From positions 24,379 to 88,378 of the forward strand of contig CP125213.1 of the NCBI GenBank assembly GCA_030020825.1: a stretch of 64,000 bases of DNA, in the 5' to 3' direction. Below the pieces are notes generated by a model. The model was not told the DNA's origin, made no database searches, and saw only the letters and a program-made list of their open reading frames with translations. This document shows, one piece after another, positions 1,518-62,852 of the stretch. The translations under genes and the position numbers were made by a program. The stretch is from Candidatus Blochmannia vicinus (nom. nud.) (lineage in GTDB: Bacteria; Pseudomonadota; Gammaproteobacteria; Enterobacterales; Enterobacteriaceae). Position 1 is the first letter of the stretch. Every line of letters begins with the position of its first letter.

Positions 1518-2527
1518 TGTTTGCTTGTATTTGGTTTAAATCATCATTGTGTTATTTATTTTTGCTACCATTTTCTTGGTTATATGGGTTAGTAAGTACG
1601 CTTAATCGTATTAGTTATCAGTATGGATGGCGTAAAGTGTATAGATTTTCAGTACCAATAGTAATTATAGGAAATGTAACAATTGGAGGAAATGGGAAAA
1701 CTCCAATGGTATTATGGTTAGTAGAACAGTTACAGCATCGTGGTTGGAAGGTTGGAGTTGTTTCACGAGGCTATAAAGGTAAATCGAATAATTATCCAAT
1801 TGTTATTAATATAAATACTCACAGTAATGAGTGTGGGGATGAACCTATGCTGATTTGGAAGCGTACTGGAGTTTTAGTAGCGGTTTCTCCAAAACGTGCT
1901 GACGCAGTTGCTGCGTTATTACGAATACAAAAATTAGATATCATAATAAGTGATGATGGACTGCAACATTATGCACTCTTTAGAGACATAGAATGGGTAG
2001 TAGTTAATAGTTTACTTCGATTTGGAAATGGTTGTTGGTTGCCAGCAGGTCCTATGCGTGAGCGAATGAACAGACTACATACAGTACAAGCAATTATTGC
2101 AAATGGATCAAAAGAAGATACTCTTTCTGGAGAGGTATTAATGCAATTATATCCTAGTATTGTAGTAAATATGTTAACAGGAGAAAGTAGACCTCTTAAT
2201 TTTTTGAGTAATGTTGTGGCTATAGCAGGAATTGGATATCCTACACAGTTTTTTTGTACTTTACAAAATTATGGCGTTATTCCTGTTAGAACAGTTTCGT
2301 TTTCTGATCATCAGATATATTACGAAAAAATGCTAACGTCCTTGACGAAAAAAGATGAAATATTATTAATGACTGAAAAAGATGCAGTTAAATGCTTAGA
2401 TTTTGCTCATAATAATTGGTGGTATGTACGTATGGAGGTTAAAATAAATAAAATAGATACAGACAATTTATTATATTCAGTGGAGGATAAAATTAGGTGT
2501 TATAAAGACTTTAATTCCAATACATAG
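1517..2527 (+). CDS. lpxK: Tetraacyldisaccharide 4'-kinase
   Basis: GNVTIGGNGKTP P-loop, SRGYKG, GDEP, DDGLQH and TEKDAVK motifs; overlaps msbA stop. Confidence 0.97.
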   Translation: MFACIWFKSSLCYLFLLPFSWLYGLVSTLNRISYQYGWRKVYRFSVPIVIIGNVTIGGNGKTPMVLWLVEQLQHRGWKVGVVSRGYKGKSNNYPIVININTHSNECGDEPMLIWKRTGVLVAVSPKRADAVAALLRIQKLDIIISDDGLQHYALFRDIEWVVVNSLLRFGNGCWLPAGPMRERMNRLHTVQAIIANGSKEDTLSGEVLMQLYPSIVVNMLTGESRPLNFLSNVVAIAGIGYPTQFFCTLQNYGVIPVRTVSFSDHQIYYEKMLTSLTKKDEILLMTEKDAVKCLDFAHNNWWYVRMEVKINKIDTDNLLYSVEDKIRCYKDFNSNT

Positions 2528-2576
2528 TAACCATAGGCATTTATCAACAATATGGTTACTATGTATTGGAATTAAA
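2510..2576. terminator. 26-bp perfect inverted repeat, 15-nt loop, overlapping lpxK 3' end
   Basis: tttaattccaatacatagtaaccata (2510-2535) is the exact reverse complement of tatggttactatgtattggaattaaa (2551-2576). Terminator role inferred from position. Confidence 0.6.
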
Positions 2577-2731
2577 CGAATTTATTATGTATTGGTGATG
2601 TAAATGTATTTTTGATTTAGTGATGTAAATTGTCGTAATGGAGTGAGTTATTTTGTATTTATAGAATGAATGTATGTGATAAAGATATGTAAACGTGTGA
2701 AAAAATTAATATTTGGCGGGTTCATTATATT

Positions 2732-2917
2732 ATGATGAGATATCAGTTATTAAATATAATTGTATGTCCTATATGTTATTCAAAATTATACTTTGATTTA
2801 GAACAAAAAGAATTAATATGTAACATTGATAACTTAGCTTTTCCGATTCGGAAAGGAATTCCTGTTCTTTTAAAAAAAGATGCTCGTAATATTATGCCAC
2901 AAAAGGACCCAAAATGA
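2732..2917 (+). CDS. ycaR: Trm112-like UPF0434 protein YcaR
   Basis: LLNIIVCPIC...LAFPIRKGIPVLL pattern; usual position before kdsB. Confidence 0.93.
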   Translation: MMRYQLLNIIVCPICYSKLYFDLEQKELICNIDNLAFPIRKGIPVLLKKDARNIMPQKDPK

Positions 2918-60289: not shown

Positions 60290-61948
60290 TTAGGATGTAT
60301 TTATTATAGTATAGACGGTGTCTATTATTTCTCTTTCAATTTTTTTTCTATGAGAGACATGTAAAAAACTTTCGCAATAAATTTTATATACTGGCTCCGT
60401 TCCAGATAATCTACATGCTGCCCAGCCGTTTTGAGTTATTATTTTTACACCATCCATGGATATGTGATGTTTTAATGGTATTATATTTAAGATTCTAATG
60501 ATAGGATCGTCCGCTAATTCTGGCATATTAATTTGATTAAACAAAGTATTAGAAATAAGAGATTTTTGTGCGTAATTAATAGGTAATTGAATACGATTGT
60601 AACTAGACATATCAAAATTTTTGATTAGCTGATCATAATACTTCTGTAAAGATTTGCCGCTAACAGCAATAATTTCAGCTGCTAATAAACACATAATAAT
60701 TCCATCTTTGTCAGTAGACCATGGAGAACAAGAAAAATCTAAAAAGGATGCTCCTGCGCTGTCCTCTCCTACAAAACCTAAATAATTATTAAATAATCCT
60801 TTTACAAACCATTTAAAACCCACTGGTACTTCTAATAGTTGACGATTAAGATTATGTGCTACCCGATTGATCATAATACTAGATACATAAGTTTTTCCTA
60901 TAGATAATGAACAATTACACCATAATGGACGATTATTGAAAAGATAATCAGCTGCGATAGTAAGGTAATGATTGGGTTTAATTAGACCAAAAGGAGTAAT
61001 GATGCCATGTCTATCACAGTCGGGATCATTAACTAAAGTTAGGTCAAAATTTTTAGATGATTTTAATACCCCAGTCATTGCAAGTTCCGAAGAGCAGTCC
61101 ATTCGGATACAGCCGTCGTAGTCAAGATGCATAAAACTAAAGGTTTTGTCAATTTTTTTACTGATTAAATTTAAATTTAATTGATAATATTGGGCAATAT
61201 TTTGCCAATAATCTATACTTGATCCACCTAAAGGATGTACTCCTAACTTTAAACCAGATGTTTGTATAGCTTTCATATTAATTATTGTAGATAGTTTTTT
61301 TACATAATTCAAAACAAAATCTTGTGTATGTATATACCCGCTTTTCCAAGCGTTATCTAATGTCATACGATGTACATTTTGTAAATTATTTGTTAGAAAC
61401 TGATTAGCGGTTTGTTCAATTTTACGAGTAATATTAGTAGAAGCTGGCCCTCCATATATTGAGTTATATTTTATTCCACCATCTTCAGGCGGATTATGAG
61501 AAGATGTAATAATAATGCCATCAGCTTTTTTTGTATGATTATTATGATGATTTTTGTTGTATTGAGTAATAGCATGAGAAATAGCAGGAGTTGGAGTATA
61601 ACCGTTTTTTTTTTGTACAATAACGTCAATATAATTAGCTGCTAATACTTCAAGTACAGATATAAATGCTGGTTCGGAAAGAGCATGAGTGTCTTTTCCG
61701 ACGTAACATGGTCCAGTTATACCTTGTTGTGTACGTATTTGTACAATTGACTGACTAATTGCTAATATATGTGCTTCATTAAAGCTGCATTTTTGAGAAC
61801 TTCCGCGATGACCCGATGTACCAAATATAACGTTATGAGTATTATTGCTTGGATCTGGAGATAAAGCGTAATATTGCGTTATTAATCGAGATGTATTAAC
61901 AGTTTCATTCTGTGATGCGGGTTTTCCCGCACGAATGTGATTCTTCAT
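60290..61948 (-). CDS. pgm: Phosphoglucomutase
   Basis: FGTSGHRG, TSSHNPPEDGGIKYN, NDPDCDRHG, GEDSAG, DKDG, R.SGTEP..KIYCESF. Confidence 0.97.
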   Translation of the reverse strand: MKNHIRAGKPASQNETVNTSRLITQYYALSPDPSNNTHNVIFGTSGHRGSSQKCSFNEAHILAISQSIVQIRTQQGITGPCYVGKDTHALSEPAFISVLEVLAANYIDVIVQKKNGYTPTPAISHAITQYNKNHHNNHTKKADGIIITSSHNPPEDGGIKYNSIYGGPASTNITRKIEQTANQFLTNNLQNVHRMTLDNAWKSGYIHTQDFVLNYVKKLSTIINMKAIQTSGLKLGVHPLGGSSIDYWQNIAQYYQLNLNLISKKIDKTFSFMHLDYDGCIRMDCSSELAMTGVLKSSKNFDLTLVNDPDCDRHGIITPFGLIKPNHYLTIAADYLFNNRPLWCNCSLSIGKTYVSSIMINRVAHNLNRQLLEVPVGFKWFVKGLFNNYLGFVGEDSAGASFLDFSCSPWSTDKDGIIMCLLAAEIIAVSGKSLQKYYDQLIKNFDMSSYNRIQLPINYAQKSLISNTLFNQINMPELADDPIIRILNIIPLKHHISMDGVKIITQNGWAACRLSGTEPVYKIYCESFLHVSHRKKIEREIIDTVYTIINTS

Positions 61949-62085
61949 ATAGAGATTTCCTTAATTGATTATTTTAAAAAATAACTGCATATATTGATTA
62001 AATGAGCACTTTTGTATATATATAAATATATGTTGTTTGATTGTGATTAATAAAATATTTAAACATAATTATTATAATATATATT

Positions 62086-62850
62086 ATGCAGCTTAATTAT
62101 AGATTACGAATTTTTAAAACTATATGTCAGAGAATACCAATAGTAATGATCCATGGACTTTTTGGTAATCTTAGTAATCTTGGAGTAATTGCTGAAAGTT
62201 TAGCTCGGTATTGCTGTGTTGTGCAAGTTGATTTACGTAATCATGGTCGTTCTCCCCATGAAAAATCTATGACTTATTCTATAATGGCAAGAGATATTTT
62301 GGACTTACTTGATCAGTTATTAATAAAGAAATGTATAGTTATTGGTCATTCAATGGGTGGAAAAGTTGCGATGAAACTGTGTACGTTGGCACCTACACGT
62401 GTAAGCAAGGTTGTAGTTATTGATATAGCTCCGGTAAAATATAATATCCTCAAGCATGATAATGTTTTTAATGCGATTGAGTGTGTTAATTTATCCGGAG
62501 TAAAAAATAAAGATGAAGCTGCATACCTTATGCAGCAGTATTTTATTGATCAAACATTAATATTATTTCTATTAAAATCTTTCCGTCAAGGATCTTGGAT
62601 GTTTAATTTTTCGTCTATTAGAGATAATTATAAGAATATTAGTGATTGGAATACATACCAAACTTGGTGGGGTCCAATATTATTTATTAAGGGTTCATTA
62701 TCTTCATATATTAATGATTGTTATTTACATGATATATATCATCAATTTCCTCAGGCATGTATTCGTATGATATCTAATGCAAGTCATTGGGTACATTGGG
62801 ATAATCCCTTACATGTATTAAGTACAATTAATGAATTTGTTATTCATTAA
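62086..62850 (+). CDS. ybfF: Esterase YbfF (alpha/beta hydrolase)
   Basis: HGLFG...NL, DLRNHG.SP, GHSMGGK, IDIAP, HWVH. Confidence 0.95.
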   Translation: MQLNYRLRIFKTICQRIPIVMIHGLFGNLSNLGVIAESLARYCCVVQVDLRNHGRSPHEKSMTYSIMARDILDLLDQLLIKKCIVIGHSMGGKVAMKLCTLAPTRVSKVVVIDIAPVKYNILKHDNVFNAIECVNLSGVKNKDEAAYLMQQYFIDQTLILFLLKSFRQGSWMFNFSSIRDNYKNISDWNTYQTWWGPILFIKGSLSSYINDCYLHDIYHQFPQACIRMISNASHWVHWDNPLHVLSTINEFVIH

Positions 62851-62852
62851 TT
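62826..62852. repeat. 11-bp hairpin built into the last codons and stop of ybfF
   Basis: aattaatgaat-ttgtt-attcattaatt spans codons INEFVIH*. Confidence 0.55.

Follow-up and report, generated by a model that had tools for sequence, protein, structure and literature searches.

Arm-to-arm copying as a probable source of long perfect palindromes in a Blochmannia genome

Introduction

Quasipalindrome correction, in which imperfect inverted repeats are made perfect by template switching during replication, was reportedly described by Ripley in 1982, and the work on it in E. coli is said to have been reviewed by Lovett. The palindromes that we describe here share several features with that system: an excess of perfect repeats, imperfect arms that are made perfect, clusters of mutations that are templated by a reverse complement, and inversion of the spacer. 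They differ in that their arms are far longer than those of E. coli quasipalindromes (up to 42 bp, or 56 bp in a sister genome) and in that the genome lacks RecA, mismatch repair, ExoVII, RecJ, and SbcCD.

Rickettsia palindromic elements are found inside genes as well. Like REP, BIME, and ERIC sequences and the Rickettsia elements, the palindromes in this genome are scattered in intergenic DNA, but those elements are consensus families that are copied to new sites, whereas the palindromes here are individual and seem to arise in place. As with sex-chromosome palindromes and chloroplast inverted repeats, concerted evolution keeps the arms identical as their sequence drifts from one species to the next. 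However, those arms are kilobases long and are maintained by homologous recombination, while the arms here are 14–56 bp and recA is absent.

Rho-independent terminators have a G+C-rich stem of about 5–12 bp, a U-tract 3' of the stem, and a location downstream of a gene or operon. The similarities are stem-loops after genes or between convergent genes, the tracts at the edges of the palindrome between lpp and sufE, and a modest excess after stop codons. The stems here are AT-rich, 2–4 times longer, and mostly without a U-tract, and many of them lie within genes or where no transcript ends.

Both the long palindromes of Blochmannia and the upkeep of perfect inverted repeats by template switching have already been published. 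Williams and Wernegreen (2010) reported 20, 10, and 6 palindromes per Blochmannia genome, almost all of them intergenic (PMC3017870). They reported counts only, with as many as 3 mismatches permitted, and proposed that the palindromes are maintained by selection (PMC3017870). In the same genus, and with the same arms of at least 30 bp and gaps of at most 20 nt, we find 8–9 palindromes in the genome under study; what we add is their near-universal perfection, shorter members within genes, concerted changes of the arms, and a probable mechanism. Comparative evidence that template switching maintains perfect inverted repeats was presented by Lavi et al. (2018 GBE; PMC5941160), and comparative evidence for template switching also comes from Monttinen and Loytynoja (2022 PNAS; PMC8794818).

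Perfect palindromes across the genome

The genome under study (G000) is that of an uncultured, obligate ant endosymbiont of the Blochmannia type (780 kb, 28% GC). It contains 113 perfect hairpins with stems of 14–42 bp (median 18 bp), if we require a stem of at least 14 bp and a loop of at most 20 nt. As a control, we used 10 dinucleotide-preserving shuffles, with each gene and each spacer shuffled separately. The shuffled sequences contained an average of 1.6 such hairpins, with maxima of 13–16 bp, so composition-matched chance does not reproduce the stem lengths. The excess of inverted repeats grows with arm length: there are 130 perfect stems of 10 bp versus 69 in the shuffles, 59 versus 23 at 11 bp (about 2.5-fold), and 39 versus 7.5 at 12 bp.

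The long palindromes are nearly always perfect. Among those with arms of at least 20 bp, the ratio of perfect to imperfect is 36:4 in G000 and 49:4 and 42:1 in two collinear sister genomes, G012 and G010. All eight of the perfect palindromes in G000 with arms of at least 30 bp are intergenic.

The palindromes do not form a dispersed family. The arms are not simple repeats, a repeat search returned no repeat family, and the 112 non-overlapping palindromes share 97 11-mers, which is about the chance estimate for their composition, and no common motif. This agrees with a sequence-only reading of part of the genome, which had argued that these are not REP- or ERIC-like repeats.

That reading covered one 64,000-nt stretch (the window), which holds 12 of the 112 non-overlapping palindromes; this is near the genome average of about 9 per 64 kb. 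It had listed ten palindromes with perfect stems, and all ten are present with the positions and stem lengths that it gave (Table 1). Four other palindromes in the window, which begin at 41927, 54655, 59866, and 60018, were absent from that list. Two of the ten are short. Taken alone, the 9+9 palindrome at 15680 is within chance for its composition, as 10-bp stems are already common in the shuffles, and the 11-bp palindrome at 62826 could be due to chance, given the size of the excess at that length.

Table 1. Perfect palindromes in the window and their state in the collinear sister genomes G012 and G010
Position	Stem (bp)	Loop (nt)	Location	Sister genomes
2510–2576	26	15	Overlaps the lpxK stop codon (ORF end 2527)	Arms co-vary in both (T/C in one arm, A/G in the other); length changes near the centre are symmetric in both
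3695–3731	17	3	14 nt 3' of the kdsB stop	No perfect stem of at least 10 bp in either
12214–12281	33	2	Divergent slyA-rnt spacer; no transcript ends there	28 bp of the same arm in G012
15680–15697	9	0	Adjoins the large lpp/sufE palindrome	
15710–15769	30	0	Between convergent lpp and sufE	Compensated arm changes in G010 (A>G with T>C, and T>C with A>G)
30114–30153	15	10	20 nt 5' of the start codon of thrS (- strand)	Stem 15 bp in G012, 14 bp in G010; loop length differs
39583–39661	37	5	Between convergent ychF and a gene for a 239-aa membrane protein	One mismatch in G010
41927–41963	16	5	Within the pgl coding sequence	Identical in G010; 14 bp in G012
42668–42704	17	3	Spacer between convergent pgl and cpoB, 26 nt 3' of the pgl stop	9-bp core paired in G012; none in G010
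54655–54689	17	1	Within sucA (2-oxoglutarate dehydrogenase E1)	Unchanged in both, although flanking synonymous sites vary
59094–59143	23	4	Long ORF-free stretch between sdhC and pgm	30-bp version in G012, with a mirrored 2-nt deletion and a mirrored A>T; a different palindrome in G010
59866–59902	14	9	sdhC-pgm ORF-free stretch	Not found in either
60018–60049	14	4	sdhC-pgm ORF-free stretch	
62826–62852	11	5	Overlaps the stop codon of a ybfF-like esterase gene	

Evidence for copying from one arm to the other

The three collinear genomes are about 9% diverged, and the intergenic sequence that flanks the palindromes differs by 13% between G000 and G012. We chose stems in G000 and examined the same positions in G012. 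Among intergenic stem pairs that had changed on both sides, 37 were still complementary and 5 were not (P about 1e-9; the expectation was about 23 double changes, complementary or not). In coding sequences, the corresponding counts were 8 and 1. Fifty-seven palindromes are perfect in both G000 and G012, and in these, 33 substitutions and 4 indels are mirrored between the arms.

Differences are also concentrated on one arm. Of 231 differences, 175 fell on the more-changed arm, against an expectation of 155.8; not one of 20,000 simulations gave as many. In 13 of 45 palindromes, all of the differences are confined to one arm, versus 5 expected. Also, at five intergenic sites (G000 83472, 327267, 445642, 390971, and 725905), the loop in one species is the reverse complement of that in another, while the loops within coding sequences are all direct. 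In the window, the loop of the palindrome at 59094 is flipped in G012 (ATTG versus CAAC).

To look for copying events, we defined a mutation cluster as a run of at least 3 differences between G000 and G012 that has, in one species only, an exact and non-overlapping reverse-complement copy within 120 nt. In intergenic DNA, at 11 nt or more, 56 clusters are explained by a reverse complement, versus 6, 5, and 12 for the complement, reverse, and direct controls. At 14 nt or more, the counts are 36 versus 0, 0, and 5. When we polarised the clusters with G010, the copied state proved to be derived in 30 cases and ancestral in 14; a further 16 were ambiguous. The 14 clusters whose copied state is ancestral imply that decay is common as well. 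In two cases (G000 526758 and 557360), the sequence of one arm has clearly been replaced by a reverse-complement copy of its partner. Within the window, the palindrome at 60018 includes a change cluster (G000 84419–84424) whose reverse-complement copy is in G000 only. At the 3695 site, clustered differences affect both arms in G000, and the polarity of the change is ambiguous. Of the three genomes, G000 has the longest stem at the pgl/cpoB palindrome.

The sequence-only reading had suggested that template-switch correction may perfect the stems, and had proposed a search for compensatory or arm-copying changes between sister strains. The comparison supports this suggestion: of the explanations considered, such correction best accounts for the perfection of the stems.

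Palindromes at a given site can be replaced entirely. Next to ychF, nearly all species in the genus have a palindrome, and the sequences are largely different: the perfect stems and loops in other species are 43/0, 30/0, 33/12, 55/8, 50/3, 32/5, and 30/0 (bp/nt), G007 has one mismatch, and more distant species have shorter, imperfect hairpins. Between lpp and sufE, we found unrelated long palindromes in G005 (41 bp), G011 (33 bp), and G009 (19 bp), and no palindrome in several species. At slyA-rnt, an inner palindrome of 17 bp with similar sequence occupies the same position in G008, G014, G006, and G002 and is missing from G010 and G007. Many palindromes are confined to a single genome.

Could the palindromes be artefacts of sequencing or assembly, such as fold-back chimeras? 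Sanger sequencing and short-read assembly are known to suffer at Blochmannia palindromes, but the 2010 study closed the palindromic regions with Illumina reads and PCR (PMC3017870). Furthermore, at least three independently assembled, collinear genomes have homologous palindromes at orthologous sites with lineage-specific, mirrored differences. We consider an artefact to be very improbable. For assembly projects, the palindromes show where Sanger reads and the assembly of short reads break down.

Most of the palindromes do not resemble terminators

An alternative to arm-to-arm copying is that the palindromes are functional RNA elements, such as terminators, barriers to 3' exonucleases, or RNase III sites, with selection for long, perfect stems that offset the weakness of A-U pairing. 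The predicted RNA stabilities are high (-15 to -50 kcal/mol), and rnc is present. Also, for 18 of 65 palindromes, a stop codon is no more than 30 nt upstream, versus 10.1 expected (P = 0.002), and there is no comparable excess at gene starts. Next to ychF, a hairpin is kept in nearly all species despite unrelated sequence and some imperfect pairing. The palindrome between lpp and sufE stands alone: with an A-tract and a T-tract at its edges (AAAAC...GTTTT), it resembles a terminator on both strands, and it alone has the U-tract of a rho-independent terminator.

As an account of the whole class, however, this explanation is unlikely. The density of palindromes in divergent spacers is nearly as high as elsewhere (0.35 per kb, versus 0.57 in convergent and 0.52 in tandem spacers), with 18 palindromes in divergent spacers and 29 inside bona fide genes. 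T-tracts are not enriched: in tandem spacers on the + strand, the 8 nt 3' of the stem have a mean of 2.7 T versus a background of about 3.2, and in tandem spacers on the - strand, the mean number of A before the stem is 2.8, again versus about 3.2. The G+C content of the intergenic arms is 14.4%, below the 20.0% in their flanks, which is the opposite of what selection for stability would give; these arms are neither G+C-rich nor short.

The ratio of perfect to imperfect stems, of roughly 10:1, is also hard to attribute to RNA structure. A single mismatch hardly alters the stability of a stem of 30–40 bp, so selection in a symbiont with a small population should not keep such stems perfect. We looked for strand-specific tolerance of G.U pairs among the mismatches in orthologues and found none. 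Flipping of the loops would not be needed for an RNA element that is encoded on a fixed strand. Conservation across the genus is patchy, even at the lpp/sufE and lpxK sites. Finally, factor-dependent termination should be available, as the genome encodes a Rho that is 92.6% identical to that of E. coli.

Thus, the proposal in the sequence-only reading that these are terminators stabilised by lengthening is not supported for the class, given the divergent and genic placement, the lack of T-tracts, and the low G+C content; only a subset fits a role at 3' ends, as the excess after stop codons suggests. Judging by placement, a minority of the palindromes, those that directly follow stop codons or separate convergent genes, probably also serve as hairpins at the 3' ends of transcripts. 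The excess after stop codons and the genus-wide retention of the ychF hairpin imply that selection therefore acts on at least some of the palindromes.

Less probable still is that the palindromes are sites that act at the DNA level, such as cruciforms or hairpins for a nucleoid protein, gyrase, or the primosome, or operators for dimeric regulators, or else that they are orphan terminators left after the deletion of neighbouring genes. Some palindromes do lie between divergent genes or ahead of a gene (as at slyA-rnt and 20 nt before thrS), and the inner 17 bp at slyA-rnt is common to both sides of a deep split in the genus. But there is no shared motif, the arms far exceed the length of any operator, sequences turn over quickly, with unrelated palindromes replacing one another at one site, and many palindromes are in one genome only. 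Orphan terminators would account for the location of palindromes, but not for their perfection or for the copying between arms.

A model for the formation of the palindromes

We propose that the palindromes are probably products of copying between arms at the level of DNA, and are mainly not due to selection for termination; this rests on comparisons of genome sequences. During replication, the nascent strand would fold back on a short inverted repeat, copy the opposite arm, and then rejoin its own template, as in quasipalindrome correction. In this genome, the copying would be fast relative to point mutation and would thereby create new palindromes, lengthen stems, and erase mismatches. The long structures may then survive because SbcCD, a nuclease that acts on hairpins, is missing. 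Most of the palindromes would be self-maintaining by-products of mutation.

Some of the support for this model comes from missing genes. We did not find recA, recO, recJ, ruvABC, mutS, mutL, sbcC, sbcD, or xseA in the genome, while rho, rnc, recBCD, and sbcB are present. (The status of sbcCD, rnc, and rho had been raised by the earlier reading.) Both recA and sbcD are absent from all 16 of the members of the genus. Since the other routes are missing (recA, ruvABC, recO, recJ, mutS, and mutL are absent), we infer by elimination that the copying occurs at the replication fork. Similarly, the loss of SbcCD may be what permits arms of such length.

If arm-to-arm copying is correct, then it explains a published oddity of the genomes of ant endosymbionts: the comparison points to mutational creation and repair of the palindromes, with function in a minority. 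These genomes also offer a clean case, in nature, of template switching over short distances: dozens of arm-copying events can be polarised across three fully collinear genomes that have neither recombination nor mismatch repair nor hairpin cleavage. When AT-rich reduced genomes are annotated, a long hairpin should not be assumed to be a terminator.

The loss of SbcCD alone cannot explain the palindromes, because the tail of long stems is missing from three other AT-rich reduced genomes of this order in which sbcD is likewise absent: they have 0, 3, and 2 stems of at least 20 bp in 400, 200, and 200 kb, versus 20 in 400 kb here. We speculate, with some doubt, that Blochmannia has a genus-specific “palindrome engine” of unusual activity, in which short-range template switching is so fast relative to point mutation that it is a leading source of multi-nucleotide changes in non-coding DNA, builds palindromes of up to about 110 bp from scratch and keeps them flawless over the long term, and places palindromes of 14–22 bp in essential genes. 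As those other sbcD-less genomes lack this tail of long stems, the cause would lie beyond the loss of SbcCD, RecA, and mismatch repair. If so, these unculturable symbionts would amount to a mutation-accumulation experiment run by nature, in which template switching could be measured and the factor that holds it in check could be found.

ExoI is one of two exonucleases that are known in E. coli to suppress template-switch events. The gene for it, sbcB, is still present in this genome, which counts against the proposed mechanism.

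Perfect palindromes across the genome

The genome under study (G000) is a single contig of 780,225 bp with 28.3% G+C, and its host cell is an obligate carpenter-ant endosymbiont of the Blochmannia type. The genus comprises 16 species, with genomes of 700–800 kb. The window (bases 24,379–88,378) contains enterobacterial housekeeping genes: lpxK, kdsB, slyA, rnt, lpp, sufE, thrS, ychF, pgl, cpoB, sucA, sdhCD, pgm, and fldA.

All of the palindromes listed in the sequence-only reading are present, each with the perfect stem reported for it. We found five more in the window, with stems of 13–17 bp, and two of these five are in genes (pgl and sucA). 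Genome-wide, we counted perfect hairpins with a stem of at least 14 bp and a loop of at most 20 nt. G000 contains 113 of these, and the longest stem is 42 bp. As a control, we used ten dinucleotide-preserving shuffles, with each gene and each spacer shuffled separately; these had a mean of 1.6 hairpins and no stem above 16 bp. The window, with 12 palindromes, does not stand out from the rest of the genome, which averages ~9 per 64 kb.

The arms are complex sequence rather than simple repeats. The palindromes share 97 11-mers, which is about the estimated chance level, so, in agreement with the sequence-only reading, they are not a dispersed repeat family. The only Rfam match was a tRNA-Val gene, so the palindromes do not belong to any known RNA family.

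By the same criteria, the two nearest sister genomes contain 153 hairpins (G012; longest stem 56 bp) and 103 hairpins (G010). G012 and G000 differ at 8.7% of alignment columns. Many of the hairpins in G012 and G010 are at sites orthologous to those in G000, each with its own differences. Artefacts like these would not recur in independent assemblies, so the hairpins are very unlikely to be artefacts. We looked for rearrangements at palindromes across the three genomes and found none: the genomes are fully collinear. The palindromes of G012 are both more numerous and longer than those of G000; the load shifts quickly between close relatives.

Locations of palindromes and other features (G000 coordinates are genome positions)
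Feature	Coordinates	Description
slyA-rnt palindrome	window 12214–12281	divergent spacer
lpp/sufE palindrome	window 15710–15769	
ORF-free stretch, thrS-kdsA	window 30100–31450	
Hairpin upstream of thrS	window 30114–30153	15-bp stem, 20 nt upstream of the start; kept in G000, G012, and G010
ychF palindrome	window 39583–39661	convergent spacer
pgl palindrome	window 41927–41963	perfect 16-bp stem inside the gene
sucA palindrome	window 54655–54689	perfect 17-bp stem inside the gene, identical in G000, G012, and G010 though nearby synonymous sites differ
ORF-free stretch, sdhC-pgm	window 58727–60290	contains three palindromes
Spacer palindrome	window 59094	2-nt deletion mirrored in both arms
leuC palindrome	G000 314047–314082	G+C-rich, in the final 25–45 nt of the coding sequence
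pepA palindrome	G000 432634–432671	as for leuC
Arm overwrite	G000 526758	left arm conserved in all three genomes; G000 right arm replaced by the exact reverse complement of the left
Arm overwrite	G000 557360	similar to 526758

The two arms change together

The comparative evolution of the arms decides between the possible explanations for these palindromes. Williams and Wernegreen (2010, PMC3017870) tallied the long palindromes of three Blochmannia genomes. They noted that these stood in the way of assembly and suggested that they are maintained by selection; a 2011 paper mentioned variants within one such palindrome. Lavi et al. (2018, PMC5941160) drew on E. coli and related bacteria to argue that short inverted repeats stay perfect through template switching. 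In our literature search, we did not find any paper that joined the Blochmannia palindromes with template switching or that gave the comparative evidence described here.

Among palindromes with arms of at least 20 bp, perfect ones outnumber imperfect ones by 36 to 4 in G000, 49 to 4 in G012, and 42 to 1 in G010, and the intergenic DNA around the palindromes differs by 13% between G000 and G012. Selection on folding cannot plausibly maintain this perfection, because a single mismatch barely affects the stability of a 35-bp stem, and selection is least plausible in a symbiont whose population is small.

We then selected stems in G000 and examined their counterparts in G012. Where both sides of an intergenic base pair had changed, 37 pairs were still complementary and 5 were not; the expected number of double changes, complementary or not, was ~23 (P about 1e-9). 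Within genes, 8 double changes were complementary and 1 was not. Between the two genomes, the 57 palindromes that are perfect in both show 33 substitutions and 4 indels mirrored in the arms. Differences between the genomes are also concentrated on one arm more than chance allows (175 of 231, versus 155.8 expected), to a degree not seen in any of 20,000 simulations. Finally, five loops, all of them intergenic, are reverse-complemented between species; the loops in coding sequences are all direct.

Arm copying also seems to rewrite the C-terminal tails of the LeuC and PepA proteins. The leuC and pepA palindromes have compensated changes in G012 and G010, where they are loopless with stems of 18–20 bp.

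To look for copying across the genome, we considered all 5,500 clusters of at least three differences between G000 and G012. We scored a cluster if it had an exact, non-overlapping reverse-complement copy at most 120 nt away, in one species only. We required that the copies not overlap because AT-rich segments that overlap their own mirror image inflate the "reverse" control. Reverse-complement copies of at least 11 nt explained 56 intergenic clusters, as compared to 6, 5, and 12 for the complement, reverse, and direct controls. For copies of 14 nt or more, there were 36 reverse-complement cases and 0, 0, and 5 controls, respectively. With G010 as the outgroup, the copied state was the derived one in 30 cases and the ancestral one in 14; another 16 cases were ambiguous.

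The perfection of the stems, the concerted changes, the clustering on one arm, the loop flips, and the cluster test together give good support to the part of the sequence-only reading that invoked template-switch correction.

Repair and processing genes

We searched G000, G012, and G010 with E. coli K-12 proteins as tblastn queries and also ran genus-wide searches for families. recA and sbcD are absent from all 16 species of the genus. The E. coli queries did not identify sbcC, mutS, mutL, ruvABC, recO, recJ, xseA, or xerD in the three genomes, and the rep query matched only the uvrD locus. Of the processing genes that the sequence-only reading had singled out, sbcCD is thus missing, while rnc and rho (92.6% identical to E. 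coli) are present, as are sbcB (ExoI), recBCD, uvrD, polA, dnaQ, and rnhA. With these genes missing, the arms cannot recombine homologously and hairpins cannot undergo mismatch repair, which would leave template switching at the replication fork as the route for copying.

In E. coli, SbcCD cleaves the hairpins formed by long palindromes, so by analogy, its absence should permit long palindromes in Blochmannia. Loss of SbcCD is not sufficient, because three other sbcD-less, AT-rich reduced genomes from the same order lack the long tail: samples of 400, 200, and 200 kb contained 0, 3, and 2 stems of at least 20 bp, versus 20 in 400 kb of G000. These three genomes (G168, G031, and G045; 18–21% G+C) contain many hairpins of 12–16 bp, but stems that reach 20 bp are nearly missing, so the long tail is not general to AT-rich reduced genomes.

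In G000, G012, and G010, the E. coli Era query matched only the der locus (E about 1e-10) and no separate era gene. If this and the xerD result hold, era is missing from all three genomes, along with at least half of the Xer system for dimer resolution.

Are the palindromes terminators?

The main idea of the sequence-only reading was that these are terminators, kept stable in an AT-rich genome by longer and more perfect stems. This is partly supported at best. Tandem spacers hold 47 of the 112 non-overlapping palindromes in G000, convergent and divergent spacers hold 18 each, and the other 29 lie within long ORFs. The ORFs that we tested are real genes (lpxD, recB, cysG, leuC, pepA, a RidA-family gene, cls, mqo, and sucA), and fewer than one palindrome was expected in genes genome-wide; stems include 20 bp in lpxD and 22 bp in cysG. 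Per kb of spacer, there are 0.57 palindromes in convergent, 0.52 in tandem, and 0.35 in divergent spacers, or 0.19, 0.22, and 0.16 for stems of at least 20 bp. We did not find T-tracts 3' of the hairpins in the direction of transcription. The intergenic arms have 14.4% G+C, versus 20.0% in their own 60-nt flanks. There is a modest excess within 30 nt after stop codons (18 of 65 palindromes, versus 10.1 expected; P = 0.002). From these data, we conclude that the palindromes as a class are probably not terminators.

The excess after stop codons suggests that a subset may serve as terminators. The lpp/sufE palindrome is the sole match among the long palindromes to a scan for consensus terminators, and it alone is bordered by an A-tract and a T-tract, as in a bidirectional terminator. 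There was no excess of palindromes before start codons, and no strand-specific tolerance of G.U pairs, which would be a sign of selection at the RNA level.

Turnover across the genus

The ychF spacer has a palindrome in nearly every species, with stems of up to 55 bp. The sequences are largely unrelated between clades, and the most distant species have shorter, imperfect hairpins. In the lpp/sufE spacer, seven species have long perfect palindromes, with three unrelated sequences among them; the remaining species have none. In the slyA-rnt palindrome, the inner 17 bp are common to G000 and the B. pennsylvanicus clade; in G000 and G012 the stem has been extended to 28–33 bp, and G010 and G007 lack the palindrome. 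Across the genus, palindromes thus arise, lengthen, drift, and disappear rather than being steadily conserved.

The hairpin upstream of thrS might be a leader element. We compared it by eye to the thrS operator of E. coli and dropped that interpretation: the loop on the mRNA strand lacks an anticodon-like NGU and does not resemble the anticodon loop of tRNA-Thr.

The two ORF-free stretches (1.3–1.6 kb, with no ORF of 80 or more amino acids) are probably the remains of lost genes.
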